DNA of 64,000 nucleotides, taken from NCBI GenBank assembly GCA_964016885.1, contig OZ024743.1, positions 62,620,001 through 62,684,000 of the forward strand. The letters are read 5' to 3'. The notes below the pieces were generated by a model, which made no database searches, was not told the DNA's origin, and was given only the letters and a program-made list of their open reading frames with translations. This document shows, one piece after another, positions 1-51,099 of the stretch (positions are counted from its first letter, which is position 1; every line of letters starts with the position of its first letter). This DNA comes from Eledone cirrhosa. Lineage: Eukaryota. The translations under genes and the position numbers were made by a program.

Positions 1-3000
1 CTTCGTAGATTAGATGGATGGCTGGAAAAATTGGAATCAGCTCTAGCGATACATTTTAGCAGAGAAGAATGGGAAAGTGTCTTATCTCTTCAATATTTTC
101 AGATTGAATGAATTAGGTTAAAGACAGGGTAGTAGCCTTAAAGAAGTGCATAGAGAGGGGGGTAGGAACTGAGGGTCGCATGGTAAATAACTGAGAGAGA
201 TACAATAGGATTAGAATACCGCATGGTAAATATCCAAGTTAATAAGTTAATACTACATCAGTAAAATTAATAATAACGTCATGAAAAACTACTAAGAGAA
301 ACCCTCGAAAATTTATTGCTAATACAGCAGGGAAAATTTAACGCTAATACAGCAGGGAACATCATAATATTAACGACAATATGTAGGCTAAAATACCTTC
401 GTAGATTAGATGGATGGCTGGAAAAATTGGAATCAGCTCTAGTGATACATTTTAGCAGAGAAGAATGGGAAAGTGTCTTATCTCTTCAATATTTTCAGAT
501 TGAATGAATTAGGTTAAAGACGGGGTAGTAGCCTTAAAGAAGTGCATAGAGAGGGGGGGTAGGAACTGAGGGTCGCATGGTAAATAACTGAGAGAGATAC
601 AATAGGATTAGAATACCGCATGGTAATATCCAAGTTAATACTACATCAGTAAAATTAACAATAATAACGTCATGAAAAACTACTAAGAGAAACCCTCGAA
701 AATTTATTGCTAATACAGCAGGGAAAATTTAACGCTAATACAGCAGGGAAAATCATAATATTAACGACAATATGTAGGCTAAAATACCTTCGTAGATTAG
801 ATGGATGGCTGGAAAAATTGGAATCAGCTCTAGTGATACACTTTAGCAGAGAAGAATGGGAAAGTGTCTTATCTCTTCAATATTTTCAGATTGAATGAAT
901 TAGGTTAAAGACAGGGTAGTAGCCTTAAAGAAGTGCATAGAGAGGGGGGGTAGGAACTGAGGGTCGCATGGTAAATAACTGAGAGAGATACAATAGGATT
1001 AGAATACCGCATGGTAAATATCCAAGTTAATAAGTTAATACTACATCAGTAAAATTAACAATAATAACGTCATGAAAAACTACTAAGAGAAACCCTCGAA
1101 AATTTATCGCTAATACAGCAGGGAAAATTTAACGCTAATACAGCAGGGAACATCATAATATTAACGACAATATGTAGGCTAAAATACCTTCGTAGATTAG
1201 ATGGATGGCTGGAAAAATTGGAATCAGCTCTAGTGATACATTTTAGCAGAGAAGAATGGGAAAGTGTCTTATCTCTTCAATATTTTCAGATTGAATGAAT
1301 TAGGTTAAAGACAGGGGAGTAGCCTTAAAGAAGTGCATAGAGAGGGTGGGGGTAGGAACTGAGGGTCGCATGGTAAATAACTGAGAGAGATACAATAGGA
1401 TTAGAATACCGCATGGTAAATATCCAAGTTAATACTACATCAGTAAAATTAACAATAATAACGTCATGAAAAACTACTAAGAGAAACCCTCGAAAATTTA
1501 TTGCTAATACAGCAGGGAAAATTTAACGCTAATACAGCAGGGAACATCATAATATTAACGACAATATGTAGGCTAAAATACCTTCGTAGATTAGATGGAT
1601 GGCTGGAAAAATTGGAATCAGCTCTAGTGATACATTTTAGCAGAGAAGAATGGGAAAGTGTCTTATCTCTTCAATATTTTCAGATTGAATGAATTAGGTT
1701 AAAGACAGGGTAGTAGCCTTAAAGAAGTGCATAGAGAGGGGGGGGTAGGAACTGAGGGTCGCATGGTAAATAACTGAGAGAGATACAATAGGATTAGAAT
1801 ACCGCATGGTAAATATCCAAGTTAATAAGTTAATACTACATCAGTAAAATTAATAATAACGTCATGAAAAACTACTAAGAGAAACCCTCGAAAATTTATT
1901 GCTAATACAGCAGGGAAAATTTAACGCTAATACAGCAGGGAACATCATAATATTAACGACAATATGTAGGCTAAAATACCTTCGTAGATTAGATGGATGG
2001 CTGGAAAAATTGGAATCAGCTCTAGTGATACATTTTAGCAGAGAAGAATGGGAAAGTGTCTTATCTCTTCAATATTTTCAGATTGAATGAATTAGGTTAA
2101 AGACGGGGTAGTAGCCTTAAAGAAGTGCATAGAGAGGGGGGGTAGGAACTGAGGGTCGCATGGTAAATAACTGAGAGAGATACAATAGGATTAGAATACC
2201 GCATGGTAATATCCAAGTTAATACTACATCAGTAAAATTAACAATAATAACGTCATGAAAAACTACTAAGAGAAACCCTCGAAAATTTATTGCTAATACA
2301 GCAGGGAAAATTTAACGCTAATACAGCAGGGAACATCATAATATTAACGACAATATGTAAGCTAAAATACCTTCGTAGATTAGATGGATGGCTGGAAAAA
2401 TTGGAATCAGCTCTAGTGATACATTTTAGCAGAGAAGAATGGGAAAGTGTCTTATCTCTTCAATATTTTCAGATTGAATGAATTAGGTTAAAGACAGGGT
2501 AGTAGCCTTAAAGAAGTGCATAGAGAGGGGGGTAGGAACTGAGGGTCGCATGGTAAATAACTGAGAGAGATACAATAGGATTAGAATACCGCATGGTAAA
2601 TATCCAAGTTAATAAGTTAATACTACATCAGTAAAATTAACAATAATAACGTCATGAAAAACTACTAAGAGAAACCCTCGAAAATTTATCGCTAATACAG
2701 CAGGGAAAATTTAACGCTAATACAGCAGGGAACATCATAATATTAACGACAATATGTAGGCTAAAATACCTTCGTAGATTAGATGGATGGCTGGAAAAAT
2801 TGGAATCAGCTCTAGTGATACATTTTAGCAGAGAAGAATGGGAAAGTGTCTTATCTCTTCAATATTTTCAGATTGAATGAATTAGGTTAAAGACAGGGGT
2901 AGTAGCCTTAAAGAAGTGCATAGAGAGGGGGGTAGGAACTGAGGGTCGCATGGTAAATAACTGAGAGAGATACAATAGGATTAGAATACCGCATGGTAAT

Positions 3001-6000
3001 ATCCAAGTTAATACTACATCAGTAAAATTAACAATAATAACGTCATGAAAAACTACTAAGAGAAACTCTCGAAAATTTATTGCTAATACAGCAGGGAAAA
3101 TTTAACGCTAATACAGCAGGGAACATCATAATATTAACGACAATATGTAAGCTAAAATACCTTCGTAGATTAGATGGATGGCTGGAAAAATTGGAATCAG
3201 CTCTAGTGATACATTTTAGCAGAGAAGAATGGGAAAGTGTCTTATCTCTTCAATATTTTCAGATTGAATGAATTAGGTTAAAGACAGGGTAGTAGCCTTA
3301 AAGAAGTGCATAGAGAGGGGGGGTAGGAACTGAGGGTCGCATGGTAAATAACTGAGAGAGATACAATAGGATTAGAATACCGCATGGTAAATATCCAAGT
3401 TAATAAGTTAATACTACATCAGTAAAATTAACAATAATAACGTCATGAAAAACTACTAAGAGAAACCCTCGAAAATTTATCGCTAATACAGCAGGGAAAA
3501 TTTAACGCTAATACAGCAGGGAACATCATAATATTAACGACAATATGTAGGCTAAAATACCTTCGTAGATTAGATGGATGGCTGGAAAAATTGGAATCAG
3601 CTCTAGTGATACATTTTAGCAGAGAAGAATGGGAAAGTGTCTTATCTCTTCAATATTTTCAGATTGAATGAATTAGGTTAAAGACAGGGGAGTAGCCTTA
3701 AAGAAGTGCATAGAGAGGGTGGGGGTAGGAACTGAGGGTCGCATGGTAAATAACTGAGAGAGATACAATAGGATTAGAATACCGCATGGTAAATATCCAA
3801 GTTAATACTACATCAGTAAAATTAACAATAATAACGTCATGAAAAACTACTAAGAGAAACCCTCGAAAATTTATTGCTAATACAGCAGGGAAAATTTAAC
3901 GCTAATACAGCAGGGAACATCATAATATTAACGACAATATGTAGGCTAAAATACCTTCGTAGATTAGATGGATGGCTGGAAAAATTGGAATCAGCTCTAG
4001 TGATACATTTTAGCAGAGAAGAATGGGAAAGTGTCTTATCTCTTCAATATTTTCAGATTGAATGAATTAGGTTAAAGACAGGGTAGTAGCCTTAAAGAAG
4101 TGCATAGAGAGGGGGGGGTAGGAACTGAGGGTCGCATGGTAAATAACTGAGAGAGATACAATAGGATTAGAATACCGCATGGTAAATATCCAAGTTAATA
4201 AGTTAATACTACATCAGTAAAATTAATAATAACGTCATGAAAAACTACTAAGAGAAACCCTCGAAAATTTATTGCTAATACAGCAGGGAAAATTTAACGC
4301 TAATACAGCAGGGAACATCATAATATTAACGACAATATGTAGGCTAAAATACCTTCGTAGATTAGATGGATGGCTGGAAAAATTGGAATCAGCTCTAGTG
4401 ATACATTTTAGCAGAGAAGAATGGGAAAGTGTCTTATCTCTTCAATATTTTCAGATTGAATGAATTAGGTTAAAGACGGGGTAGTAGCCTTAAAGAAGTG
4501 CATAGAGAGGGGGGGTAGGAACTGAGGGTCGCATGGTAAATAACTGAGAGAGATACAATAGGATTAGAATACCGCATGGTAATATCCAAGTTAATACTAC
4601 ATCAGTAAAATTAACAATAATAACGTCATGAAAAACTACTAAGAGAAACCCTCGAAAATTTATTGCTAATACAGCAGGGAAAATTTAACGCTAATACAGC
4701 AGGGAACATCATAATATTAACGACAATATGTAGGCTAAAATACCTTCGTAGATTAGATGGATGGCTGGAAAAATTGGAATCAGCTCTAGTGATACATTTT
4801 AGCAGAGAAGAATGGGAAAGTGTCTTATCTCTTCAATATTTTCAGATTGAATGAATTAGGTTAAAGACAGGGTAGTAGCCTTAAATAAGTGCATAGAGAG
4901 AGGGGGTAGGAACTGAGGGTCGCATGGTAAATAACTGAGAGAGATACAATAGGATTAGAATACCGCATGGTAAATATCCAAGTTAATACTACATCAGTAA
5001 AATTAACAATAATAACGTCATGAAAAACTACTAAGAGAAACCCTCGAAAATGTATTGCTAATACAGCAGGGAAAATTTAACGCTAATACAGCAGGGAAAA
5101 TCATAATATTAACGACAATATGTAGGCTAAAATACCTTCGTAGATTAGATGGAGGGCTGGAAAAATTGGAATCAGCTCTAGTGATACATTTTAGCAGAGA
5201 AGAATGGGAAAGTGTCTTATCTCTTCAATATTTTCAGATTGAATGAATTAGGTTAAAGACGGGGTAGTAGCCTTAAAGAAGTGCATAGAGAGGGGGGGTA
5301 GGAACTGAGGGTCGCATGGTAAATAACTGAGAGAGATACAATAGGATTAGAATACCGCATGGTAATATCCAAGTTAATACTACATCAGTAAAATTAACAA
5401 TAATAACGTCATGAAAAACTACTAAGAGAAACCCTCGAAAATTTATTGCTAATACAGCAGGGAAAATTTAACGCTAATACAGCAGGGAACATCATAATAT
5501 TAACGACAATATGTAAGCTAAAATACCTTCGTAGATTAGATGGATGGCTGGAAAAATTGGAATCAGCTCTAGTGATACATTTTAGCAGAGAAGAATGGGA
5601 AAGTGTCTTATCTCTTCAATATTTTCAGATTGAATGAATTAGGTTAAAGACAGGGTAGTAGCCTTAAAGAAGTGCATAGAGAGGGGGGGTAGGAACTGAG
5701 GGTCGCATGGTAAATAACTGAGAGAGATACAATAGGATTAGAATACCGCATGGTAAATATCCAAGTTAATAAGTTAATACTACATCAGTAAAATTAACAA
5801 TAATAACGTCATGAAAAACTACTAAGAGAAACCCTCGAAAATTTATCGCTAAATCAGCAGGGAAAATTTAACGCTAATACAGCAGGGAACATCATAATAT
5901 TAACGACAATATGTAGGCTAAAATACCTTCGTAGATTAGATGGATGGCTGGAAAAATTGGAATCAGCTCTAGTGATACATTTTAGCAGAGAAGAATGGGA

Positions 6001-9000
6001 AAGTGTCTTATCTCTTCAATATTTTCAGATTGAATGAATTAGGTTAAAGACAGGGGAGTAGCCTTAAAGAAGTGCATAGAGAGGGTGGGGGTAGGAACTG
6101 AGGGTCGCATGGTAAATAACTGAGAGAGATACAATAGGATTAGAATACCGCATGGTAAATATCCAAGTTAATACTACATCAGTAAAATTAACAATAATAA
6201 CGTCATGAAAAACTACTAAGAGAAACCCTCGAAAATTTATTGCTAATACAGCAGGGAAAATTTAACGCTAATACAGCAGGGAACATCATAATATTAACGA
6301 CAATATGTAGGCTAAAATACCTTCGTAGATTAGATGGATGGCTGGAAAAATTGGAATCAGCTCTAGCGATACATTTTAGCAGAGAAGAATGGGAAAGTGT
6401 CTTATCTCTTCAATATTTTCAGATTGAATGAATTAGGTTAAAGACAGGGTAGTAGCCTTAAAGAAGTGCATAGAGAGGGGGGTAGGAACTGAGGGTCGCA
6501 TGGTAAATAACTGAGAGAGATACAATAGGATTAGAATACCGCATGGTAAATATCCAAGTTAATAAGTTAATACTACATCAGTAAAATTAATAATAACGTC
6601 ATGAAAAACTACTAAGAGAAACCCTCGAAAATTTATTGCTAATACAGCAGGGAAAATTTAACGCTAATACAGCAGGGAACATCATAATATTAACGACAAT
6701 ATGTAGGCTAAAATACCTTCGTAGATTAGATGGATGGCTGGAAAAATTGGAATCAGCTCTAGTGATACATTTTAGCAGAGAAGAATGGGAAAGTGTCTTA
6801 TCTCTTCAATATTTTCAGATTGAATGAATTAGGTTAAAGACGGGGTAGTAGCCTTAAAGAAGTGCATAGAGAGGGGGGGTAGGAACTGAGGGTCGCATGG
6901 TAAATAACTGAGAGAGATACAATAGGATTAGAATACCGCATGGTAATATCCAAGTTAATACTACATCAGTAAAATTAACAATAATAACGTCATGAAAAAC
7001 TACTAAGAGAAACCCTCGAAAATTTATTGCTAATACAGCAGGGAAAATTTAACGCTAATACAGCAGGGAAAATCATAATATTAACGACAATATGTAGGCT
7101 AAAATACCTTCGTAGATTAGATGGATGGCTGGAAAAATTGGAATCAGCTCTAGTGATACACTTTAGCAGAGAAGAATGGGAAAGTGTCTTATCTCTTCAA
7201 TATTTTCAGATTGAATGAATTAGGTTAAAGACAGGGTAGTAGCCTTAAAGAAGTGCATAGAGAGGGGGGGTAGGAACTGAGGGTCGCATGGTAAATAACT
7301 GAGAGAGATACAATAGGATTAGAATACCGCATGGTAAATATCCAAGTTAATAAGTTAATACTACATCAGTAAAATTAACAATAATAACGTCATGAAAAAC
7401 TACTAAGAGAAACCCTCGAAAATTTATCGCTAATACAGCAGGGAAAATTTAACGCTAATACAGCAGGGAACATCATAATATTAACGACAATATGTAGGCT
7501 AAAATACCTTCGTAGATTAGATGGATGGCTGGAAAAATTGGAATCAGCTCTAGTGATACATTTTAGCAGAGAAGAATGGGAAAGTGTCTTATCTCTTCAA
7601 TATTTTCAGATTGAATGAATTAGGTTAAAGACAGGGGAGTAGCCTTAAAGAAGTGCATAGAGAGGGTGGGGGTAGGAACTGAGGGTCGCATGGTAAATAA
7701 CTGAGAGAGATACAATAGGATTAGAATACCGCATGGTAAATATCCAAGTTAATACTACATCAGTAAAATTAACAATAATAACGTCATGAAAAACTACTAA
7801 GAGAAACCCTCGAAAATTTATTGCTAATACAGCAGGGAAAATTTAACGCTAATACAGCAGGGAACATCATAATATTAACGACAATATGTAGGCTAAAATA
7901 CCTTCGTAGATTAGATGGATGGCTGGAAAAATTGGAATCAGCTCTAGTGATACATTTTAGCAGAGAAGAATGGGAAAGTGTCTTATCTCTTCAATATTTT
8001 CAGATTGAATGAATTAGGTTAAAGACAGGGTAGTAGCCTTAAAGAAGTGCATAGAGAGGGGGGGTAGGAACTGAGGGTCGCATGGTAAATAACTGAGAGA
8101 GATACAATAGGATTAGAATACCGCATGGTAAATATCCAAGTTAATAAGTTAATACTACATCAGTAAAATTAATAATAACGTCATGAAAAACTACTAAGAG
8201 AAACCCTCGAAAATTTATTGCTAATACAGCAGGGAAAATTTAACGCTAATACAGCAGGGAACATCATAATATTAACGACAATATGTAGGCTAAAATACCT
8301 TCGTAGATTAGATGGATGGCTGGAAAAATTGGAATCAGCTCTAGTGATACATTTTAGCAGAGAAGAATGGGAAAGTGTCTTATCTCTTCAATATTTTCAG
8401 ATTGAATGAATTAGGTTAAAGACGGGGTAGTAGCCTTAAAGAAGTGCATAGAGAGGGGGGGTAGGAACTGAGGGTCGCATGGTAAATAACTGAGAGAGAT
8501 ACAATAGGATTAGAATACCGCATGGTAATATCCAAGTTAATACTACATCAGTAAAATTAACAATAATAACGTCATGAAAAACTACTAAGAGAAACCCTCG
8601 AAAATTTATTGCTAATACAGCAGGGAAAATTTAACGCTAATACAGCAGGGAAAATCATAATATTAACGACAATATGTAGGCTAAAATACCTTCGTAGATT
8701 AGATGGATGGCTGGAAAAATTGGAATCAGCTCTAGTGATACACTTTAGCAGAGAAGAATGGGAAAGTGTCTTATCTCTTCAATATTTTCAGATTGAATGA
8801 ATTAGGTTAAAGACGGGGTAGTAGCCTTAAAGAAGTGCATAGAGAGGGGGGGTAGGAACTGAGGGTCGCATGGTAAATAACTGAGAGAGATACAATAGGA
8901 TTAGAATACCGCATGGTAAATATCCAAGTTAATAAGTTAATACTACATCAGTAAAATTAACAATAATAACGTCATGAAAAACTACTAAGAGAAACCCTCG

Positions 9001-12000
9001 AAAATTTATTGCTAATACAGCAGGGAAAATTTAACGCTAATACAGCAGGGAACATCATAATATTAACGACAATATGTAGGCTAAAATACCTTCGTAGATT
9101 AGATGGATGGCTGGAAAAATTGGAATCAGCTCTAGTGATACATTTTAGCAGAGAAGAATGGGAAAGTGTCTTATCTCTTCAATATTTTCAGATTGAATGA
9201 ATTAGGTTAAAGACAGGGTAGTAGCCTTAAAGAAGTGCATAGAGAGGGGGGGTAGGAACTGAGGGTCGCATGGTAAATAACTGAGAGAGATACAATAGGA
9301 TTAGAATACCGCATGGTAAATATCCAAGTTAATACTACATCAGTAAAATTAACAATAATAACGTCATGAAAAACTACTAAGAGAAACCCTCGAAAATTTA
9401 TTGCTAATACAGCAGGGAAAATTTAACGCTAATACAGCAGGGAACATCATAATATTAACGACAATATGTAGGCTAAAATACCTTCGTAGATTAGATGGAT
9501 GGCTGGAAAAATTGGAATCAGCTCTAGTGATACATTTTAGCAGAGAAGAATGGGAAAGTGTCTTATCTCTTCAATATTTTCAGATTGAATGAATTAGGTT
9601 AAAGACAGGGTAGTAGCCTTAAAGAAGTGCATAGAGAGGGGGGTAGGAACTGAGGGTCGCATGGTAAATAACTGAGAGAGATACAATAGGATTAGAATAC
9701 CGCATGGTAAATATCCAAGTAAATAAGTTAATACTACATCAGTAAAATTAACAATAATAACGTCATGAAAAACTACTAAGAGAAACCCTCGAAAATTTAT
9801 CGCTAAATCAGCAGGGAAAATTTAACGCTAATACAGCAGGGAACATCATAATATTAACGACAATATGTAGGCTAAAATACCTTCGTAGATTAGATGGATG
9901 GCTGGAAAAATTGGAATCAGCTCTAGTGATACATTTTAGCAGAGAAGAATGGGAAAGTGTCTTATCTCTTCAATATTTTCAGATTGAATGAATTAGGTTA
10001 AAGACAGGGGAGTAGCCTTAAAGAAGTGCATAGAGAGGGTGGGGGTAGGAACTGAGGGTCGCATGGTAAATAACTGAGAGAGATACAATAGGATTAGAAT
10101 ACCGCATGGTAAATATCCAAGTTAATACTACATCAGTAAAATTAACAATAATAACGTCATGAAAAACTACTAAGAGAAACCCTCGAAAATTTATTGCTAA
10201 TACAGCAGGGAAAATTTAACGCTAATACAGCAGGGAACATCATAATATTAACGACAATATGTAGGCTAAAATACCTTCGTAGATTAGATGGATGGCTGGA
10301 AAAATTGGAATCAGCTCTAGCGATACATTTTAGCAGAGAAGAATGGGAAAGTGTCTTATCTCTTCAATATTTTCAGATTGAATGAATTAGGTTAAAGACA
10401 GGGTAGTAGCCTTAAAGAAGTGCATAGAGAGGGGGGTAGGAACTGAGGGTCGCATGGTAAATAACTGAGAGAGATACAATAGGATTAGAATACCGCATGG
10501 TAAATATCCAAGTTAATAAGTTAATACTACATCAGTAAAATTAATAATAACGTCATGAAAAACTACTAAGAGAAACCCTCGAAAATTTATTGCTAATACA
10601 GCAGGGAAAATTTAACGCTAATACAGCAGGGAACATCATAATATTAACGACAATATGTAGGCTAAAATACCTTCGTAGATTAGATGGATGGCTGGAAAAA
10701 TTGGAATCAGCTCTAGTGATACATTTTAGCAGAGAAGAATGGGAAAGTGTCTTATCTCTTCAATATTTTCAGATTGAATGAATTAGGTTAAAGACGGGGT
10801 AGTAGCCTTAAAGAAGTGCATAGAGAGGGGGGGGGTAGGAACTGAGGGTCGCATGGTAAATAACTGAGAGAGATACAATAGGATTAGAATACCGCATGGT
10901 AATATCCAAGTTAATACTACATCAGTAAAATTAACAATAATAACGTCATGAAAAACTACTAAGAGAAACCCTCGAAAATTTATTGCTAATACAGCAGGGA
11001 AAATTTAACGCTAATACAGCAGGGAAAATCATAATATTAACGACAATATGTAGGCTAAAATACCTTCGTAGATTAGATGGATGGCTGGAAAAATTGGAAT
11101 CAGCTCTAGTGATACACTTTAGCAGAGAAGAATGGGAAAGTGTCTTATCTCTTCAATATTTTCAGATTGAATGAATTAGGTTAAAGACAGGGTAGTAGCC
11201 TTAAAGAAGTGCATAGAGAGGGGGGGGTAGGAACTGAGGGTCGCATGGTAAATAACTGAGAGAGATACAATAGGATTAGAATACCGCATGGTAAATATCC
11301 AAGTTAATAAGTTAATACTACATCAGTAAAATTAACAATAATAACGTCATGAAAAACTACTAAGAGAAACCCTCGAAAATTTATTGCTAATACAGCAGGG
11401 AAAATTTAACGCTAATACAGCAGGGAACATCATAATATTAACGACAATATGTAAGCTAAAATACCTTCGTAGATTAGATGGATGGCTGGAAAAATTGGAA
11501 TCAGCTCTAGTGATACATTTTAGCAGAGAAGAATGGGAAAGTGTCTTATCTCTTCAATATTTTCAGATTGAATGAATTAGGTTAAAGACAGGGTAGTAGC
11601 CTTAAAGAAGTGCATAGAGAGGGGGGGGTAGGAACTGAGGGTCGCATGGTAAATTACTGAGAGAGATACAATAGGATTAGAATACCGCATGGTAAATATC
11701 CAAGTTAATAAGTTAATACTACATCAGTAAAATTAACAATAATAACGTCATGAAAAACTACTAATAGAAACCCTCGAAAATTTATTGCTAATACAGCAGG
11801 GAAAATTTAACGCTAATACAGCAGGGAACATCATAATATTAACGACAATATGTAGGCTAAAATACCTTCGTAGATTAGATGGATGGCTGGAAAAATTGGA
11901 ATCAGCTCTAGTGATACATTTTAGCAGAGAAGAATGGGAAAGTGTCTTATCTCTTCAATATTTTCAGATTGAATGAATTAGGTTAAAGACAGGGGAGTAG

Positions 12001-15000
12001 CCTTAAAGAAGTGCATAGAGAGGGTGGGGGTAGGAACTGAGGGTCGCATGGTAAATAACTGAGAGAGATACAATAGGATTAGAATACCGCATGGTAAATA
12101 TCCAAGTTAATACTACATCAGTAAAATTAACAATAATAACGTCATGAAAAACTACTAAGAGAAACCCTCGAAAATTTATTGCTAATACAGCAGGGAAAAT
12201 TTAACGCTAATACAGCAGGGAACATCATAATATTAACGACAATATGTAGGCTAAAATACCTTCGTAGATTAGATGGATGGCTGGAAAAATTGGAATCAGC
12301 TCTAGTGATACACTTTAGCAGAGAAGAATGGGAAAGTGTCTTATCTCTTCAATATTTTCAGATTGAATGAATTAGGTTAAAGACAGGGTAGTAGCCTTAA
12401 AGAAGTGCATAGAGAGGGGGGGGTAGGAACTGAGGGTCGCATGGTAAATAACTGAGAGAGATACAATAGGATTAGAATACCGCATGGTAAATATCCAAGT
12501 TAATAAGTTAATACTACATCAGTAAAATTAACAATAATAACGTCATGAAAAACTACTAAGAGAAACCCTCGAAAATTTATTGCTAATACAGCAGGGAAAA
12601 TTTAACGCTAATACAGCAGGGAAAATCATAATATTAACGACAATATGTAGGCTAAAATACCTTCGTAGATTAGATGGATGGCTGGAAAAATTGGAATCAG
12701 CTCTAGTGATACACTTTAGCAGAGAAGAATGGGAAAGTGTCTTATCTCTTCAATATTTTCAGATTGAATGAATTAGGTTAAAGACAGGGTAGTAGCCTTA
12801 AAGAAGTGCATAGAGAGGGGGGGTAGGAACTGAGGGTCGCATGGTAAATAACTGAGAGAGATACAATAGGATTAGAATACCGCATGGTAAATATCCAAGT
12901 TAATAAGTTAATACTACATCAGTAAAATTAACAATAATAACGTCATGAAAAACTACTAAGAGAAACCCTCGAAAATTTATTGCTAATACAGCAGGGAAAA
13001 TTTAACGCTAATACAGCAGGGAAAATCATAATATTAACGACAATATGTAGGCTAAAATACCTTCGTAGATTAGATGGATGGCTGGAAAAATTGGAATCAG
13101 CTCTAGTGATACACTTTAGCAGAGAAGAATGGGAAAGTGTCTTATCTCTTCAATATTTTCAGATTGAATGAATTAGGTTAAAGACAGGGTAGTAGCCTTA
13201 AAGAAGTGCATAGAGAGGGGGGGGTAGGAACTGAGGGTCGCATGGTAAATAACTGAGAGAGATACAATAGGATTAGAATACCGCATGGTAAATATCCAAG
13301 TTAATAAGTTAATACTACATCAGTAAAATTAACAATAATAACGTCATGAAAAACTACTAAGAGAAACCCTCGAAAATTTATTGCTAATACAGCAGGGAAA
13401 ATTTAACGCTAATACAGCAGGGAACATCATAATATTAACGACAATATGTAAGCTAAAATACCTTCGTAGATTAGATGGATGGCTGGAAAAATTGGAATCA
13501 GCTCTAGTGATACATTTTAGCAGAGAAGAATGGGAAAGTGTCTTATCTCTTCAATATTTTCAGATTGAATGAATTAGGTTAAAGACAGGGTAGTAGCCTT
13601 AAAGAAGTGCATAGAGAGGGGGGGGTAGGAACTGAGGGTCGCATGGTAAATTACTGAGAGAGATACAATAGGATTAGAATACCGCATGGTAAATATCCAA
13701 GTTAATAAGTTAATACTACATCAGTAAAATTAACAATAATAACGTCATGAAAAACTACTAATAGAAACCCTCGAAAATTTATTGCTAATACAGCAGGGAA
13801 AATTTAACGCTAATACAGCAGGGAACATCATAATATTAACGACAATATGTAGGCTAAAATACCTTCGTAGATTAGATGGATGGCTGGAAAAATTGGAATC
13901 AGCTCTAGTGATACATTTTAGCAGAGAAGAATGGGAAAGTGTCTTATCTCTTCAATATTTTCAGATTGAATGAATTAGGTTAAAGACAGGGGAGTAGCCT
14001 TAAAGAAGTGCATAGAGAGGGTGGGGGTAGGAACTGAGGGTCGCATGGTAAATAACTGAGAGAGATACAATAGGATTAGAATACCGCATGGTAAATATCC
14101 AAGTTAATACTACATCAGTAAAATTAACAATAATAACGTCATGAAAAACTACTAAGAGAAACCCTCGAAAATTTATTGCTAATACAGCAGGGAAAATTTA
14201 ACGCTAATACAGCAGGGAACATCATAATATTAACGACAATATGTAGGCTAAAATACCTTCGTAGATTAGATGGATGGCTGGAAAAATTGGAATCAGCTCT
14301 AGTGATACATTTTAGCAGAGAAGAATGGGAAAGTGTCTTATCTCTTCAATATTTTCAGATTGAATGAATTAGGTTAAAGACAGGGTAGTAGCCTTAAAGA
14401 AGTGCATAGAGAGGGGGGTAGGAACTGAGGGTCGCATGGTAAATAACTGAGAGAGATACAATAGGATTAGAATACCGCATGGTAAATATCCAAGTTAATA
14501 AGTTAATACTACATCAGTAAAATTAACAATAATAACGTCATGAAAAACTACTAAGAGAAACCCTCGAAAATTTATTGCTAATACAGCAGGGAAAATTTAA
14601 CGCTAATACAGCAGGGAACATCATAATATTAACGACAATATGTAGGCTAAAATACCTTCGTAGATTAGATGGATGGCTGGAAAAATTGGAATCAGCTCTA
14701 GTGATACATTTTAGCAGAGAAGAATGGGAAAGTGTCTTATCTCTTCAATATTTTCAGATTGAATGAATTAGGTTAAAGACAGGGTAGTAGCCTTAAAGAA
14801 GTGCATAGAGAGGGGGGTAGGAACTGAGGGTCGCATGGTAAATAACTGAGAGAGATACAATAGGATTAGAATACCGCATGGTAAATATCCAAGTTAATAA
14901 GTTAATACTACATCAGTAAAATTAACAATAATAACGTCATGAAAAACTACTAAGAGAAACCCTCGAAAATTTATTGCTAATACAGCAGGGAAAATTTAAC

Positions 15001-18000
15001 GCTAATACAGCAGGGAACATCATAATATTAACGACAATATGTAGGCTAAAATACCTTCGTAGATTAGATGGATGGCTGGAAAAATTGGAATCAGCTCTAG
15101 TGATACATTTTAGCAGAGAAGAATGGGAAAGTGTCTTATCTCTTCAATATTTTCAGATTGAATGAATTAGGTTAAAGACAGGGGAGTAGCCTTAAAGAAG
15201 TGCATAGAGAGGGTGGGGGTAGGAACTGAGGGTCGCATGGTAAATAACTGAGAGAGATACAATAGGATTAGAATACCGCATGGTAAATATCCAAGTTAAT
15301 ACTACATCAGTAAAATTAACAATAATAACGTCATGAAAAACTACTAAGAGAAACCCTCGAAAATTTATTGCTAATACAGCAGGGAAAATTTAACGCTAAT
15401 ACAGCAGGGAACATCATAATATTAACGACAATATGTAGGCTAAAATACCTTCGTAGATTAGATGGATGGCTGGAAAAATTGGAATCAGCTCTAGTGATAC
15501 ATTTTAGCAGAGAAGAATGGGAAAGTGTCTTATCTCTTCAATATTTTCAGATTGAATGAATTAGGTTAAAGACAGGGTAGTAGCCTTAAAGAAGTGCATA
15601 GAGAGGGGGGTAGGAACTGAGGGTCGCATGGTAAATAACTGAGAGAGATACAATAGGATTAGAATACCGCATGGTAAATATCCAAGTTAATAAGTTAATA
15701 CTACATCAGTAAAATTAACAATAATAACGTCATGAAAAACTACTAAGAGAAACCCTCGAAAATTTATTGCTAATACAGCAGGGAAAATTTAACGCTAATA
15801 CAGCAGGGAACATCATAATATTAACGACAATATGTAGGCTAAAATACCTTCGTAGATTAGATGGATGGCTGGAAAAATTGGAATCAGCTCTAGTGATACA
15901 TTTCAGCAGAGAAGAATGGGAAAGTGTCTTATCTCTTCAATATTTTCAGATTGAATGAATTAGGTTAAAGACAGGGTAGTAGCCTTAAAGAAGTGCATAG
16001 AGAGGGGGGTAGGAACTGAGGGTCGCATGGTAAATAACTGAGAGAGATACAATAGGATTAGAATACCGCATGGTAAATATCCAAGTTAATAAGTTAATAC
16101 TACATCAGTAAAATTAACAATAATAACGTCATGAAAAACTACTAAGAGAAACCCTCGAAAATTTATTGCTAATACAGCAGGGAAAATTTAACGCTAATAC
16201 AGCAGGGAACATCATAATATTAACGACAATATGTAGGCTAAAATACCTTCGTAGATTAGATGGATGGCTGGAAAAATTGGAATCAGCTCTAGTGATACAT
16301 TTTAGCAGAGAAGAATGGGAAAGTGTCTTATCTCTTCAATATTTTCAGATTGAATGAATTAGGTTAAAGACAGGGTAGTAGCCTTAAAGAAGTGCATAGA
16401 GAGGGGGGGTAGGAACTGAGGGTCGCATGGTAAATAACTGAGAGAGATACAATAGGATTAGAATACCGCATGGTAAATATCCAAGTTAATACTACATCAG
16501 TAAAATTAACAATAATAACGTCATGAAAAACTACTAAGAGAAACCCTCGAAAATTTATTGCTAATACAGCAGGGAAAATTTAACGCTAATACAGCAGGGA
16601 ACATCATAATATTAACGACAATATGTAGGCTAAAATACCTTCGTAGATTAGATGGATGGCTGGAAAAATTGGAATCAGCTCTAGTGATACATTTTAGCAG
16701 AGAAGAATGGGAAAGTGTCTTATCTCTTCAATATTTTCGGATTGAATGAATTAGGTTAAAGACAGGGTAGTAGCCTTAAAGAAGTGCATAGAGAGGGGGG
16801 TAGGAACTGAGGGTCGCATGGTAAATAACTGAGAGAGATACAATAGGATTAGAATACCGCATGGTAAATATCCAAGTTAATAAGTTAATACTACATCAGT
16901 AAAATTAACAATAATAACGTCATGAAAAACTACTAAGAGAAACCCTCGAAAATGTATTGCTAATACAGCAGGGAAAATTTAACGCTAATACAGCAGGGAA
17001 AATCATAATATTAACGACAATATGTAGGCTAAAATACCTTCGTAGATTAGATGGAGGGCTGGAAAAATTGGAATCAGCTCTAGTGATACATTTTAGCAGA
17101 GAAGAATGGGAAAGTGTCTTATCTCTTCAATATTTTCAGATTGAATGAATTAGGTTAAAGACAGGGTAGTAGCCTTAAAGAAGTGCATAGAGAGGGGGGT
17201 AGGAACTGAGGGTCGCATGGTAAATAACTGGGAGAGATACAATAGGATTAGAATACCGCATGGTAAATATCCAAGTTAATAAGTTAATACTACATCAGTA
17301 AAATTAACAATAATAACGTCATGAAAAACTACTAAGAGAAACCCTCGAAAATTTATTGCTAATACAGCAGGGAAAATTTAACGCTAATACAGCAGGGAAC
17401 ATCATAATATTAACGACAATATGTAGGCTAAAATACCTTCGTAGATTAGATGGATGGCTGGAAAAATTGGAATCAGCTCTAGTGATACATTTTAGCAGAG
17501 AAGAATGGGAAAGTGTCTTATCTCTTCAATATTTTCAGATTGAATGAATTAGGTTAAAGACAGGGTAGTAGCCTTAAAGAAGTGCATAGAGAGGGGGGTA
17601 GGAACTGAGGGTCGCATGGTAAATAACTGAGAGAGATACAATAGGATTAGAATACCGCATGGTAAATATCCAAGTTAATAAGTTAATACTACATCAGTAA
17701 AATTAACAATAATAACGTCATGAAAAACTACTAAGAGAAACCCTCGAAAATTTATCGCTAATACAGCAGGGAAAATTTAACGCTAATACAGCAGGGAACA
17801 TCATAATATTAACGACAATATGTAGGCTAAAATACCTTCGTAGATTAGATGGATGGCTGGAAAAATTGGAATCAGCTCTAGTGATACATTTTAGCAGAGA
17901 AGAATGGGAAAGTGTCTTATCTCTTCAATATTTTCAGATTGAATGAATTAGGTTAAAGACAGGGGAGTAGCCTTAAAGAAGTGCATAGAGAGGGTGGGGG

Positions 18001-20387
18001 TAGGAACTGAGGGTCGCATGGTAAATAACTGAGAGAGATACAATAGGATTAGAATACCGCATGGTAAATATCCAAGTTAATACTACATCAGTAAAATTAA
18101 CAATAATAACGTCATGAAAAGCTACTAAGAGAAACCCTCGAAAATTTATTGCTAATACAGCAGGGAAAATTTAACGCTAATACAGCAGGGAACATCATAA
18201 TATTAACGACAATATGTAGGCTAAATTACCTTCGTAGATTAGATGGATGGCTGGAAAAATTGGAATCAGCTCTAGTGATACATTTTAGCAGAGAAGAATG
18301 GGAAAGTGTCTTATCTCTTCAATATTTTCAGATTGAATGAATTAGGTTAAAGACAGGGTAGTAGCCTTAAAGAAGTGCATAGAGAGGGGGGTAGGAACTG
18401 AGGGTCGCATGGTAAATAACTGAGAGAGATACAATAGGATTAGAATACCGCATGGTAAATATCCAAGTTAATACTACATCAGTAAAATTAACAATAATAA
18501 CGTCATGAAAAACTACTAAGAGAAACCCTCGAAAATTTATTGCTAATACAGCAGGGAAAATTTAACGCTAATACAGCAGGGAACATCATAATATTCACGA
18601 CAATATGTAGGCTAAAATACCTTCGTAGATTAGATGGATGGCTGGAAAAATTGGAATCAGCTCTAGTGATACACTTTAGCAGAGAAGAATGGGAAAGTGT
18701 CTTATCTCTTCAATATTTTCAGATTGAATGAATTAGGTTAAAGACAGGGTAGTAGCCTTAAAGAAGTGCATAGAGAGGGGGGGTAGGAACTGAGGGTCGC
18801 ATGGTAAATAACTGAGAGAGATACAATAGGATTAGAATACCGCATGGTAAATATCCAAGTTAATAAGTTAATACTACATCAGTAAAATTAACAATAATAA
18901 CGTCATGAAAAACTACTAAGAGAAACCCTCGAAAATTTATCGCTAATACAGCAGGGAAAATTTAACGCTAATACAGCAGGGAACATCATAATATTAACGA
19001 CAATATGTAGGCTAAAATACCTTCGTAGATTAGATGGATGGCTGGAAAAATTGGAATCAGCTCTAGTGATACATTTTAGCAGAGAAGAATGGCAAAGTGT
19101 CTTATCTCTTCAATATTTTCAGATTGAATGAATTAGGTTAAAGACAGGGTAGTAGCCTTAAATAAGTGCATAGAGAGGGGGGGTAGGAACTGAGGGTCGC
19201 ATGGTAAATAACTGAGAGAGATACAATAGGATTAGAATACCGCATGGTAAATATCCAAGTTAATACTACATCAGTAAAATTAACAATAATAACGTCATGA
19301 AAAACTACTAAGAGAAACCCTCGAAAATTTATTGCTAATACAGCAGGGAAAATTTAACGCTAATACAGCAGGGAACATCATAATATTAACGACAATATGT
19401 AGGCTAAAATACCTTCGTAGATTAGATGGATGGCTGGAAAAATTGGAATCAGCTCTAGTGATACATTTTAGCAGAGAAGAATGGGAAAGTGTCTTATCTC
19501 TTCAATATTTTCAGATTGAATGAATTAGGTTAAAGACAGGGTAGTAGCCTTAAAGAAGTGCATAGAGAGGGGGGTATGAACTGAGGGTCGCATGGTAAAT
19601 AACTGAGAGAGATACAATAGGATTAGAATACCGCATGGTAAATATCCAAGTTAATAAGTTAATACTACATCAGTAAAATTAACAATAATAACGTCATGAA
19701 AAACTACTAAGAGAAACCCTCGAAAATTTATTGCTAATACAGCAGGGAAAATTTAACGCTAATACAGCAGGGAAAATCATAATATTAACGACAATATGTA
19801 GGCTAAAATACCTTCGTAGATTAGATGGATGGCTGGAAAAATTGGAATCAGCTCTAGTGATACATTTTAGCAGAGAAGAATGGGAAAGTGTCTTATCTCT
19901 TCAATATTTTCAGATTGAATGAATTAGGTTAAAGACAGGGTAGTAGCCTTAAAGAAGTGCATAGAGAGGGGGGGTAGGAACTGAGGGTCGCATGGTAAAT
20001 ACCTGAGAGAGATACAATACGATCAGAATACCGCATGGTAAATATCCAAGTTAATAAGTTAATACTACATCAGTAAAATTAACAATAATAACGTCATGAA
20101 AAACTACTAAGAGAAACCCTCGAAAATTTATCGCTAATACAGCAGGGAAAATTTAACGCTAATACATCAGGGAACATCATAATATTAACGACAATATGTA
20201 GGCTAAATTACCTTCGTAGATTAGATGGATGGCTGGAAAAATTGGAATCAGCTCTAGTGATACATTTTAGCAGAGAAGAATGGGAAAGTGTCTTATCTCT
20301 TCAATATTTTCAGATTGAATGAATTAGGTTAAAGACAGGGTAGTAGCCTTAAAGAAGTGCATAGAGAGGGGGGTAGGAACTGAGGGT
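1..20387. repeat. Satellite array, ~391-401-bp monomer, ~51.5 copies, open at the left window edge
   Basis: The same monomer recurs every 391-401 bp (starts at 316, 707, 1107, 1501 ... 19731, 20130). Length varies with a G-run, an optional aagttaat duplication and an optional aac. Internal subrepeats are gctaatacagcagggaa x2 and cgcatggtaaata x2. Confidence 0.99.
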
Positions 20388-20389
20388 AG

Positions 20390-20480
20390 TTTCCCTGCTG
20401 TATTAGCGATAAATTTTCGAGGGTTTCATTTAGTAGTTTTTCATGACGTTATTATTGTTAATTTTACTGATGTAGTATTA
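20390..20480 (-). repeat. Inverted partial satellite monomer terminating the array
   Basis: tttccctgctgtattagcgataaattttcgaggg...actgatgtagtatta is the reverse complement of the monomer segment taatactacatcagt...cagcagggaaa. Confidence 0.97.
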
Positions 20481-20484
20481 TATG

Positions 20485-20515
<31 letters not shown>

Positions 20516-20575
20516 TTATATATATATATTTATATATATATATGTATATATATATATATTTATTATATATATATG

Positions 20576-20608
<33 letters not shown>

Positions 20609-20637
20609 TTATATATATATATGTATATATATATATG

Positions 20638-20668
<31 letters not shown>

Positions 20669-20697
20669 TTATATATATATATGTATATATATATATG

Positions 20698-20728
<31 letters not shown>

Positions 20729-20763
20729 TTATATATATATATGTATATATATATATGTATATA

Positions 20764-20808
<45 letters not shown>

Positions 20809-20837
20809 GTATATATATATATTTATATATATATATT

Positions 20838-20908
<71 letters not shown>

Positions 20909-20929
20909 GTATATATATATATATGTATA

Positions 20930-21012
<83 letters not shown>

Positions 21013-21016
21013 GTAT
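20481..21016. repeat. Long interrupted (TA)n microsatellite
   Basis: TA dinucleotide run with periodic TG/TT interruptions. Confidence 0.99.
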
Positions 21017-21773: not shown

Positions 21774-21814
<41 letters not shown>

Positions 21815-21815
21815 T

Positions 21816-25647: not shown

Positions 25648-25721
25648 GGATACGAATAATAATAATAAACTTAAACTTATCTCAACGGATTCTCCAAATT
25701 ATGTATCATATTCAACCAAAC

Positions 25722-26452
25722 ATGTCTTTACCATGCTGGCCAGTATGACTGCCTCTAACTGTCTCTACGAAGTCGTCTACTCCCTTCGGAATCCTAACAT
25801 TTTGCCTTGTCTATTATAGGTATTCGTATCGGTTTATTTCGCCGAAATACCCTGAGATGCTATAGGCCATGATGACTACGCTCTCTCTCTCTCTAAGCCA
25901 CCTATCCCCTACCTATTACCTCCCCTTCTCTTCCATTCATCCCTCACTCATCTTGAGGTTCTTGAAGAGATAAGACACACTTGATTCTGAAAGGCTAAAA
26001 TGAATCACTAGAACTGCTAAACCATGTCCTAGCCATCCATATATGTCTTTCACCTATCCCTCTATTTCCCAATTGCAACTGTTCCACTCACACTATTATT
26101 AGTATTATTGTTGTATTTATCATTTCACTAGCCTCCACAACACATATTTATTTTTTTACCCTCGTTTTTTCCCATGCTGGCCAGTATGACTGTCTCTGCG
26201 AAGTCATCTACTCCCTTCCTCTCTCTTACATTATTATTATTGTTGTATTTATCATTTCGCTGGCCCCTTCACAACACATATTTATTCTTTACCCTTGTCT
26301 TTACCATGCTGGTCAGTATGACTGTCTCTAACTGTCTCTACGAAGTCGTCTACTCCCTTCGAAATCCTAAGATTTTGCCTTGTCTAATATAGGTACTCGT
26401 ATCGGTTTATTTCGCTGAAATACGCTGAGATGCTATAGGCCATGATGGCTAC
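25722..26452 (+). mobile_element. Non-coding element with ~155-bp terminal direct repeats (period ~573 bp), related to the satellite monomer
   Basis: tgtctttaccatgctgg...gctataggccatgatg occurs at ~25723 and ~26296. The internal segment 25962-26040 matches the satellite minus strand in three blocks. Confidence 0.7.
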
Positions 26453-26769
26453 CTATCTCACAACCCCCCCCCCCCCTCACACCAATCAAATCTCAGCATC
26501 CCCACCCCACCCATCACCAACCCCAACAAACTCTGCCATTACTACTACTACCTCTCTCCTCACCCATCCCAGCCCCAACAAACCCTGCCATTATTACCAC
26601 CACCACTGTTCTTCTAGCCCTGAATTCTTCTACCCTTATGTATGGATGAGCTGAAAATAAATGGAACAACCCCGAATTAATAAATGAAAATGAATATGAA
26701 TCCGCGAGCTACCAAGCACCCATGCGAAGCTTCAATTCAGAGACAGGAAGCATAGACACACCCCTGCAA

Positions 26770-33930: not shown

Positions 33931-33937
33931 CTATATA

Positions 33938-34404
33938 TGTTTCACACTGTTGGTGTTCATCAGAGCTTAGCACTTGCCGACCTTTGCTGAAAATTATAAA
34001 GAAACAGATCTGTCAGTTTATCTCCGTTCGTTTGTTGAAAAAAGAAGTAAGTGACATAATCACTACTTTAAAATAATAGCGCAAGGTCTTCAAAATGTTT
34101 ATAATTAAGCATACAGTATATTGCCAAATATTTAAAATTTTCAATTTTTGCTGGATCGGCATTCGCTCTGTATAATCAGTTCCTGATTATTACTGGAATT
34201 CTATAAGAATCCAGCCTCTATAATTTTCAGCAAAGGTCGGCGAGTGCTAAGCTCTGATGAACACCAACAGTGTGAAACAGATCTGTCAGCTTATCTCCCT
34301 TCGTTTGTTGAAAAAAGAAGTAAGTGACATAGTCACTACTTTAAAATAATAGCACAAGGTCTTTAAAATGTTTTTAATTAAGCATACAGTATATTGCCAA
34401 ATAT
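33938..34404 (+). mobile_element. Retrozyme-like or PLE pseudo-LTR element: inverted 5' segment plus ~1.5 tandem 273-bp units, in TA-rich flanks
   Basis: 34001-34131 repeats at 34274-34404. 33938-33998 is the reverse complement of 34219-34279. Contains a hammerhead. Confidence 0.85.
34248..34293 (+). ncRNA. Canonical minimal type I hammerhead ribozyme
   Basis: taagct-CUGAUGA-acac(caaca)gtgt-GAAA-cagatctg-UC-agctta. Stem I is 6 bp, stem II is 4 bp, and stem III is the palindrome acagatctgt. Predicted cleavage is after C34287. Confidence 0.92.
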
Positions 34405-34833: not shown

Positions 34834-34843
34834 TATATATATA

Positions 34844-35033
34844 ATAGGGAAAAGTATGACCCCGACGGCAGAGCTCAAGCTGTTTCGATGGCTTTTTCCA
34901 GAAATAGCCGTCGAAACGACTTGAGCTCTGCCGTCGGGGTCATACTTTTTCCTATTTCCCACTCTACTACCCTAAGTATTGAGTACTCTGGTGCGTTATG
35001 GTCAAACTGGTTCCTTACCACAATTCCTTTGTT
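34844..35033 (+). mobile_element. Truncated hammerhead-family element with a terminal palindrome, in (TA)n
   Basis: 34844-34955 is an imperfect palindrome containing gccgtcGAAAcgacttgagctctgccGTCggggt. The tail is homologous to 49664-49745. Confidence 0.85.
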
Positions 35034-35535: not shown

Positions 35536-37100
35536 TCAGGGTGGTTGAGTAATCATTGGTGTGTTAATCCAGCTAAAAAGTAGATGCGATTTCAGGTGCG
35601 GACAACATCTAAAGATCTCGGTCTTAGAGTTGAGACAAGTGGGAGGAGTTTTCAAATTTTGGAAAATTCTGAATTTTTCCGTAGTACACAAAGAACTTTT
35701 CTTTGTGCCCCTTTGGTATTCTCTTGAGTGTTCTAAAATAGACCAATCAGTAGAGTATGGAATGTTTTTTGTCTTTAAACTCCCGCACTTTATTTGCCAG
35801 TGCCGTTGCTGTTCTTTATTCAGGGTGTTTGAAAGAAGCGACATGTGCATAGTACCTGGTTTTAAATCTGTCCTGAGTCATGCCAACATATTGTTCACTT
35901 CTGGCTATCTGGTTATTAATCATCGGTGTCAACTTGGCCTCATACACAATGGATTTGGTATTACATTTGCCCTGTAATGGGCATTCTTCCAGTTTCCTGC
36001 AGCTGCATCCTGGATTTACTCTAGTACCATTTGAGTTGGTAATTTTAGTTTTCATTGATGGGCAGCAAGAGTAGCTGATTTTAACTAAATTTCTATTAAA
36101 TATCTTATATCTATGATTAGAAGTTCGAGGAATTCGGTGAAGCCGCTGTTATTGAGGGCCTTATTATATAATAAGGGGAAGCTTTGTTAAAAATATCTAT
36201 AAACGAAGATAAGGTAGAGATCTTACGGCTAATGTTAGGAATAAGATTTTTAAAGACTATAGGGGTATGGCAAGACTCTTTGTGTATATATCTTAAATTC
36301 TCATTGGGTTTATGATAAGGTTTAAAAGAGGCAGTAAGTAGGTCAAGATTGATATCAAGGAAGTTAGTATTAGTAAGATTCGTATCTATAGTAATTTTAA
36401 GGTTTAAGTTAGCAAAGGTATTGATTAAGTCTTTACGGAATTTATCAAGGTTATGGCCGTTGGTGGTATGAGAAACTGTCAAATCATCGTCTCGGTATAA
36501 ACCGATATTATGGCAAGGAAATTTCTCTTTAAGGGTGTGGAGGAGGAATAATCCTACTAAGTTGCACACATCGGTGCTATCAAATGAGCCCATCGCGACA
36601 TCAAAACTTTTCAGGGCTTGATTTTTTAACACAAGTAACTTCATTAGCAAAAAGTAGTGTTTTCCTAGCATGTAAGATAACATCTTCTTCTAATTTAGAA
36701 ATATTAATGAAAAGTCTAGCAAAAACTAAGGCTTTAGTTAATAAGGATTCTGTGATAGAGGGGTAAAAATCAACAATATCAAATTGGGTAAATCTACACT
36801 TATTTTTTCCTTGTATATTATTAAACCAAGAAATAACAGGATGTATTTAACCATTGGGATAAGTCAGTCATAGTTCTTATTTGTAGTGTTATATTTCTTA
36901 GGATTTTTTTACTCGCAAGACCAATTTCATATTTAGCAGGGTTGATTAATCTACAACTGGGTCGATTAGTAAAGTCTAATTTATGGTCTTTAAGGGTAAT
37001 ATATGCTTTACGTTTGGCTAGGCTTTCAATTCGGTTGTCAATTTTTAAAGTGCTAGCTAGGGCTTTAGCTTCATTATTAATGGTATTATAAGTATTACTG
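35536..37100 (-). mobile_element. Penelope-like element, probably Hydra clade (RT plus C-terminal GIY-YIG), decayed
   Basis: Motifs YITLKDHK, CRLINPAK, GSFDSTDVCNLVG, LYRDD and NFLD. The linker CSCRKLEEC fits CxCx5C, followed by IVYEA..YVGMT..FKTRY and LNSKTEIFRCCPH. Frameshifted. Confidence 0.88.
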
Positions 37101-37513
37101 TTTGCTATTATATATGTATGTATATATAGAGAGAAAGAAAAATATGTACCTTGTATATATGCAATATATTGTATTCTCATGGATATATGGTTCTTCCTTT
37201 CCCTCTATATATACATATATCTTTTCATTTGAATTATTATAGCTCTGGAAAAACGTGTATTGAGAAGCACAAAAATCAAGCATACTAGATGTTTTGTTAC
37301 CTTAAATTTGTGTATAATATATATGTGTATGTGTGTGTCCTAATAACTGACAGACTACCCATCCCAAGGCGCCTGGGGAAATAAACAGGTGACAGTCTTC
37401 TTGTGTATGTATGTCTATATATATATATATATACACACACATACACAAGACGACTGTCTCCTGTTTATATATATATATATATATATATATAACATTAAAT
37501 AAAAAATCGATTG

Positions 37514-50548: not shown

Positions 50549-50580
<32 letters not shown>

Positions 50581-51062: not shown

Positions 51063-51099
51063 CTTACTTGTTCCTATATATATATATATATATATATAA

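Follow-up and report, generated by a model that had tools for sequence, protein, structure and literature searches.

The locus analysed here, a window of 64,000 nucleotides of Eledone cirrhosa DNA, raises the question of how a long satellite array came to end in a short, flipped piece of its own monomer set directly against a (TA)n run. The spread of satellites to new loci is usually ascribed to DNA circles or unequal exchange, for which there is little direct evidence. The initial annotation of the window, made from the letters alone, proposed that the array is an amplified concatemer of a non-autonomous RNA mobilised by Penelope-like elements (PLEs), with the minus strand as sense, which may have been seeded by rolling-circle reverse transcription of a circular RNA of about 396 nt.

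Structure of the array and of its end

The features considered are collected in Table 1. The array comprises 51.4 head-to-tail copies with 97% matches (TRF) of a monomer of about 396 bp (391-401 bp; TRF period 399), and it runs past the start of the window, so that one end of one array is in view. The monomer has a GC content of 0.34-0.35 and is non-coding, without a long ORF (longest stop-free stretch, 71-76 aa); it is thus a tandem, non-coding, low-GC unit within the range of about 150-450 bp that characterises retrozymes. Monomers lying 4, 6 and 10 units apart are more alike than random pairs (p 0.004, 0/5000 and 0/5000, respectively), adjacent monomers are less alike than random (p 0.005), and 27 haplotypes occur among 51 monomers. 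This periodicity and diversity are typical of expansion at the DNA level, and the array is not a uniform concatemer. The genome is very rich in this family, with a word depth of about 4,000-147,000 in run X1, and the last full monomer before the array edge carries five rare changes. A long homogeneous array, multi-monomer periodicity, a diverged edge and high abundance are together the features of a satellite under concerted evolution. No dispersed satellite copies were found in the remaining 43 kb of the window. A near-identical monomer was seen at low depth in run X4 (organism B), as a relative or as carry-over. In the RAD data, read ends at AATT sites, together with the low-agreement loose ends found there, were attributed to the library.

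Table 1. Positions of the features in the window
Feature	Position	Strand	Remarks
Satellite array	1..20387	- (inferred sense)	TRF, monomer matching and higher-order periodicity
Terminal partial monomer, 176 bp	20212..20387	-	Equals consensus except for poly-G length (by-eye comparison)
Decayed hammerhead-like region, in every copy	20222..20304	-	TTGAAGA core-like motif kept, GAAA and stem I lost (alignment)
Two filler bases, inner junction	20388..20389	.	Sole unassigned bases ahead of the TA run
Inverted 91-bp monomer segment	20390..20480	+	Element-sense on +, 3' end against TA, 2-nt TA overlap
(TA)n run interrupted by G/T variants, presumed target	20479..21016 (538 bp)	.	TRF
Dispersed monomer relative	25650..26460	+	Partial tandem, 573-bp period; hammerhead-like motif about 25957-26015
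Comparison element, 1.5 units of 273 bp	33935..34404	+	Canonical type I hammerhead about 34248-34293; 67-bp inverted head
Fold-back mini-insertion, second hammerhead family	34841..35031	+	TA on both sides; without tandem unit
Broken Hydra-like Penelope RT and GIY-YIG endonuclease frames	35816..37204	-	By-eye motif comparison with the Hydra-1_Obim protein
Second-family element, 590-bp inverted arms	49664..51077	-	U3-A8 hammerhead twice (49845 minus, 50974 plus)
Fold-back mini-insertion, second hammerhead family	51100..51293	-	Comparison element

The junction itself was present as the initial annotation had described it: the array stops, flips its orientation and passes into (TA)n, and the inverted piece, put at about 90 bp, measures 91 bp. 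No other stretch of 1-21100 matches the monomer on the minus strand, and this one corresponds to consensus positions 249-339 with 96.7% identity. The ends of pure (TA)5+ runs occur at 0.002 per base in 21017-64000, and a flipped copy adjoining TA is therefore unlikely by position alone; TA runs may nevertheless attract breakpoints. No comparable TA run of at least 100 bp was found in 21017-64000. TA is present at the one array end in view, the far end, with any tail, lying outside the window.

An inverted end could also have arisen as an artefact of assembly or of the library where a collapsed repeat stops, and satellite loci are often misassembled, as the available text of PMC5411766 states. 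No contig or read among those listed from the four runs spans the junction or supports it independently. Monomer position 249 joined to TA was absent from the loose ends listed for these runs, which run on into the array, and the depth at 20489-20492 was 0 in 4/4 runs, two observations to be read with the caveat that TA-bearing reads may be filtered. However, the inverted segment is offset rather than being a mirror image of the array end and has two private bases, and the rare changes in the last full monomer are those expected of an aged array edge. An artefact is consequently considered very improbable.

Hammerhead remnant and sense strand

A stretch of 82 bp of the monomer matches the dispersed repeat at 25.6 kb (25962-26043; 74% over 85 columns, E 2e-7). 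The match begins at the hammerhead-like motif of that repeat, and the relaxed hammerhead scan gives a match that starts at 25962, the first matched base. The descriptor was relaxed only after the motif had been noticed; on shuffled sequence it gave 14 matches in 20 runs of 44 kb, that is, about 0.001 expected per 82 bp. The motif is irregular, with U at core position 3, an irregular helix II and a helix III of 2 bp; it had no match in the strict hammerhead scan, its MFE fold is not a hammerhead, and the repeat gave no Rfam match in the small-range scan. Anchored upstream homology reached scores equalled by 0, 3 and 3 of 500 shuffles at 150, 200 and 250 nt and by 15/500 at 100 nt, while unanchored upstream and downstream alignments of the satellite with this repeat did not reach significance (equalled by 57-348 of 500 shuffles). 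Sequence comparison shows homology of the monomer to a dispersed repeat across the hammerhead-like motif of that repeat, and the motif is broken in the satellite. The strict-scan match at 29923 was rejected as chance (AT-rich DNA, 1-bp helix II).

The position of the motif in this homologue fixes the sense orientation independently of the junction. It supports the minus strand as the probable sense strand, in agreement with the original proposal, as does a C+T content of 0.61, similar to that of three of the four comparison sense strands. With minus-strand sense, the 3' end of the flipped copy therefore faces TA. The array end would then show an inverted 5'-truncated copy at its 5' end with the 3' end of that copy outward, as in Penelope-like insertions, a likeness that depends on the minus strand being sense.

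The circular RNA found no support. A non-LTR retrozyme, in which a circular RNA of about 396 nt would be copied by rolling-circle reverse transcription into a concatemer, fits the size of the monomer and the length of the array, since known retrozyme arrays reach 62-mers and 180-300 units, and it is plausible that its ancestor carried a functional hammerhead. However, descriptor scans found no hammerhead on either strand of the monomer, and the small-range Rfam scan no relevant match; an Rfam scan of 19000-64000 gave only sub-threshold TA or hairpin miRNA-type matches and also missed a canonical hammerhead. Consecutive units with an intact type I hammerhead were not found, the remnant lacking GAAA and stem I. 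GAAA in sense orientation between core and site occurs in 1/52 copies, through a private change, and its restoration is absent from the read variants listed. The monomer folds no better than its shuffles (z -0.71 and +0.86 linear, -0.17 circular, against -3.5 for the unit of the 33938 element), and is thus not the highly self-paired RNA of a retrozyme. Moreover, 27 haplotypes and block periodicity are unlike the product of a single template. The retrozyme route is accordingly judged very unlikely for the satellite.

Neighbouring elements and Penelope machinery

Four small elements, at 33938, 34844, 49664 and 51100, had been said to share the satellite's layout of tandem unit, inverted terminal segment and TA. 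All four do have an inverted segment with its outer end on TA, but only the one at 33938 has a tandem unit, and that element adjoins only a short TATATA. They fall into two hammerhead-bearing families and have no sequence in common with the satellite. The 33938 element fits the hammerhead retrozyme kind, and the small-range Rfam scans gave HH9 only at 34236-34309. The junctions of these neighbours have TA overlaps of 2-3 nt, with short fillers at some inner junctions. The expected Penelope-type end polarity was borne out, the sense 3' end of the inverted copy lying on TA in 4/4 neighbours and in the satellite; taken alone, the agreement of the satellite is a 50% coin toss. The outer end of the satellite lies 195 nt past the remnant cut site, compared with +20 and -5 for the neighbours' inverted copies and +98 and +117 for their tailed ends.

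This polarity bears on a purely DNA-level origin of the end, in which repair of a break or of a stalled fork at the long TA run switched template to the neighbouring monomer, or a circle of satellite DNA was reinserted, with no reverse transcriptase involved; the monomer may still be Penelope-derived in that case. The inverted segment is identical to the last full monomer at 89/91 positions, including the C323 variant (present in 9/51 monomers), and may have been copied locally from 20060-20150. The abundance of the family also favours such an origin, and circle reinsertion and array-end inversions have been proposed or seen in Drosophila satellites, according to the accessible part of PMC5411766. 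However, the shared variant is also expected from a tandem RNA template, and a DNA-only event predicts neither the 3'-end-to-TA polarity nor the likeness to four Penelope-type neighbours. It is considered rather unlikely.

The attribution of a (TA)n target to Hydra/Naiad PLEs agrees with documented preference, as (TA)n is the preferred target of Hydra-1_Obim and of the Naiads of octopuses. The Hydra-like relic in the window is a possible type of trans-acting partner; it has no DNA similarity to the satellite, Pfam recognised none of the four Penelope relic frames, and motifs of the satellite had no match in published Naiad/Hydra consensi. By eye, the monomer may resemble a hairpin in Hydra tails. 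In vitro, a Penelope protein cuts AT-rich DNA on both strands and extends each of them, and hammerhead mutants leave Penelope insertion unreduced (PMC11167929). Two matches from pattern scans were rejected, namely a 23-bp chance match within a LINE-like ORF (L001) and 24 bp in a bacterial genome, without homology beyond this stretch (L002; about 1.1 exact 20-mer matches expected); the other scans gave 0 matches.

Discussion

The satellite combines features of several systems already described. Animal non-LTR retrozymes and hammerhead satellites (Cervera and de la Pena, 2020, PMC7229834; Li, Clavereau and Pollet, 2026, preprint 10.64898/2026.07.22.740005) likewise form long arrays of a non-coding, low-GC tandem unit of 150-450 bp and are proposed to stem from Penelope pLTRs, with subsequent local amplification, whereas the satellite units are devoid of a hammerhead or stable fold, show the multi-monomer periodicity of an ordinary satellite and are known here from DNA alone. 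Insertions of endonuclease-bearing Hydra/Naiad PLEs, as described by Craig et al. (2021, PMC8557442), share the 5'-truncated, inverted copy next to the 5' end, the (TA)n target (presumed for the satellite) and partial tandems, and have octopus members; the satellite differs in the absence of an ORF, in more than 50 units and in having no sequence match to published consensi. The non-autonomous Chlamys elements such as MRC1 in the same source are non-coding Penelope passengers that are frequently inserted head-to-tail in multiple copies, in a clade mostly without hammerheads, but they belong to green algae; their similarity at the 3' end to an autonomous partner is documented, that of the satellite is not. 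The SF1 satellites of flea beetles have monomers partly homologous to Penelope elements, although the accessible text (PMC11846391) does not describe an array end with an insertion signature. No described cephalopod case was found in the literature searches.

The reading preferred here, which is held to be somewhat probable, is that a ribozyme-dead, Penelope-derived repeat was seeded at this locus by Penelope machinery and then expanded by recombination. The ancestor of the monomer would have been a non-autonomous Penelope-like element whose hammerhead later decayed. A read-through transcript of existing tandem copies, rather than a circle, may have served as template, and Penelope enzymes acting in trans would have inserted the seed. 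The Penelope protein may have nicked both strands of the TA run and primed twice, so that the array would be one product and the short flipped copy, which meets TA with its 3' end, the other. Unequal exchange would then have duplicated multi-monomer blocks to more than 20 kb; the block pattern is seen in the array, the process being the presumed part. As the pieces at the array end resemble the present monomer to 98-100%, the insertion would postdate the loss of the ribozyme. A wider proposal, that an abundant ribozyme-less satellite founds new arrays when its own tandem transcript is reverse-transcribed into (TA)n by Penelope enzymes, is put forward only tentatively.

Penelope-derived satellites and hammerhead arrays are already known; what is new is the 82-bp match of the monomer to the hammerhead-like repeat at 25962, as judged by alignment. 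With one end of one array in view, the locus provides a lead and not a demonstration. The window shows possible stages side by side, from a live-looking hammerhead tandem through a decayed one to a ribozyme-dead satellite. If the array end does keep the scar of a Penelope insertion that postdates ribozyme loss, a retro-route would exist that requires neither ribozyme nor circular RNA. Under the wider proposal, array ends would retain a readable scar of retro-insertion, and this route of satellite DNA to new loci would be countable.

The array and its junction

The monomer is repeated 51.4 times, with 97% matches, in a single tandem array spanning 1-20387. When its consensus was tiled over 1-21100, the sole minus-strand match was found at 20390-20480, with two bases (20388-20389) left unassigned, and a TA-rich run follows directly, up to 21016. 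The order of array end, inverted partial unit and TA repeat proposed in the initial annotation is thus borne out by consensus tiling. The inverted piece corresponds to monomer positions 249-339 and is identical at 89 of 91 positions to its seven best-matching monomers, all of which carry the variant C323 and among which is the last full monomer. The piece is offset rather than a mirror image and carries two bases private to it, and five rare changes occur in the last full monomer, which suggests that the sequence of the junction is genuine and slightly aged. In the predicted sense-strand fold, the end of the inverted copy (20455-20480) would lie close to the foot of a small hairpin, on its 3' side.

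Four of 24 public sequencing runs were compared with 20153-20492. Organism A, the source of run X1, holds the monomer in great abundance; the word depth of ~4,000-147,000 there is a depth without single-copy reference and not a copy number. The reads of this organism include diverged monomer variants missing from the array, and one X1 loose end at 20246 indicates a further related family. Among the matches listed for the four runs, from which TA-bearing reads may have been filtered, no junction-spanning piece was found, and no loose end at 20387 or 20480 leads into TA, all continuing into the array. Because the matches listed are a part of the whole and TA-bearing reads were possibly dropped, the run data weigh neither way, and they neither back nor exclude the junction or dispersed copies.

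Growth of the array

Leaving poly-G length aside, 27 haplotypes are present among the 51 full monomers, and a pair of monomers shows 4.2 differences on average. The likeness of monomers 4, 6 and 10 units apart exceeded that in 5000 permutations, while adjacent monomers were less alike. Such a pattern would be produced by repeated block duplication but not by copying once round a monomer circle. The suggestion that the array had been seeded by rolling-circle copying of a circular monomer RNA is therefore disfavored, also by the monomer itself, in which no hammerhead was found with a strict or relaxed descriptor and the fold is nothing unusual; it has no relevant Rfam match and no long ORF. At about monomer 29 the variant pattern turns from one of 4/6-unit blocks into one built of different blocks, and the monomer contains internal duplications of 25 bp, ~43 bp and a polymorphic 8 bp. 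The TA run (20479-21016) has its own ~60-bp pattern of G/T variants and therefore likewise grew by block duplication.

Origin of the monomer

The monomer minus strand matches 25962-26043 (74%, E 2e-7), which is part of a dispersed partial tandem with a 573-bp period. A relaxed-descriptor hammerhead match lies at 25962, with a 5-bp stem I, TTGAAGA core, irregular helix II, GAAA and 2-bp helix III. Shuffling gave 14 matches in 20 runs, or ~0.001 expected within these 82 bp, a figure qualified by the descriptor having been relaxed only after the motif had been noticed. The repeat gave no hammerhead match in Rfam, and the hammerhead is absent from the MFE fold of the motif. The satellite monomer has kept a core-like heptamer and lost GAAA and stem I; no variant with GAAA restored was among those listed for the four runs. 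The score of core-anchored alignments, which reach 150-250 nt upstream, was equalled in 0-3 of 500 shuffles, and unanchored alignments of monomer and repeat were not significant. On these comparisons, we interpret the monomer as related to a Penelope passenger that carries a hammerhead, its own motif having decayed. The minus strand as sense, as initially proposed, is backed by the hammerhead-like homologue at 25962, and with this polarity the inverted piece would meet TA by its 3' end, as in the small neighbouring elements. Its end is 195 nt past the remnant cut site, a greater distance than those neighbours show. Another candidate hammerhead at 29915-29980, with an 8-bp AT-rich stem I and a 1-bp helix II, was taken as a chance descriptor match.

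Small neighbouring elements

The initial annotation overstated the layout shared by the elements at 33938, 34844, 49664 and 51100: the inverted segment and TA hold, and the tandem unit occurs in only one of the four. They form two families without sequence relationship to the satellite. The 33938 unit is well folded (circular z -3.5), its hammerhead matches Rfam HH9 (E 0.006, under the gathering threshold), and its 273-bp tandem has a stronger claim than the satellite to being a retrozyme. Its insertion point is a short TATATA within a LINE ORF, in the 5' portion of that frame. The second-family hammerhead has U3 and A8 replacing C3 and G8, a palindromic loop 3 and a long helix II insert. Hammerheads with this swap may stay active; confirmation of this was sought in the literature and none was found, nor was a published record of such a Penelope-type family. 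Its inverted copies have one fixed stop ~20 nt past the cut site in four places, beyond which comes TA in the elements or, for the fragment, TG; the tailed ends of the family reach ~98 nt past the cut site. The layout of these small elements is that described for Penelope-like elements in the available text of Craig et al. (PMC8557442).

The rest of the window holds mostly transposon remains and microsatellites. The LicD-family gene shares 71% identity with an Octopus vulgaris protein and 68% with an Argonauta protein, which places the host among the octopods. The mariner-type ORF lies within another repeat that has related ends (37560-39930).

Features of the window outside the satellite
Feature	Coordinates	Strand	Description
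33938 element	33935-34404		1.5 units of 273 bp; 67-bp inverted head; canonical type I hammerhead
Second family	49664-51293, 34841-35031, 21814-21865		elements at 34844, 49664, 51100; fragment 21814-21865
LicD/FKTN-family coding exon	48509-49471		intact-looking; best matches octopod
43-bp minisatellite	55827-56649, 56836-57001		19 + 4 copies, split by SINE-like repeat
Mariner-type transposase ORF	38538-39578	minus	346 aa stop to stop
LTR-retrotransposon gag-pol frames	40870-43470	minus	broken
LINE fragment	51342-53951		556-aa RT frame; flanks are 205-bp inverted copies of SINE-like repeat

Proposed insertion and its machinery

The Penelope relic at 35816-37204 (minus) matches RT-plus-GIY-YIG proteins at 41%, and its frames resemble Hydra-1_Obim when compared by eye. 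A (TA)n preference is given for Hydra-1_Obim, 24 of 26 other Hydra entries and cephalopod Naiads in the accessible part of the supplement to PMC8557442. According to the portion available of Frangieh et al. (PMC11167929), a Penelope protein nicks and extends both strands of AT-rich DNA and starts inside the RNA, hammerhead cleavage being unnecessary. Two primings within one TA run would give the array and a short inverted copy, each with its 3' end outward. The template may have been a transcript of pre-existing tandem copies, which, being already concatemeric, would require no circle. Since the pieces at the end still resemble the present monomer at 98-100%, insertion would have come after ribozyme loss. 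Alternatively, the inverted end could have been made by a repair-type fold-back or by reinsertion of a circle, as outlined in the accessible text of PMC5411766; this accounts equally well for the local C323 match but leaves the polarity unexplained. We infer that the insertion step was carried out by a Penelope enzyme.

As far as the available texts go, the satellite differs from non-LTR retrozymes in lacking the hammerhead by which these are recognised (10.64898/2026.07.22.740005; PMC7229834). The former, in its accessible part, already proposes Penelope ends as a source of locally amplified tandem repeats. Long arrays are known as well, and satellites with Penelope matches are reported in the portion available of PMC11846391. 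The available text of the centromere atlas preprint mentions no cephalopod, and no cephalopod case was found described in the literature searched, which lay largely outside subscription journals. The distinctive feature here is a large satellite that has kept a probable insertion scar at its edge.
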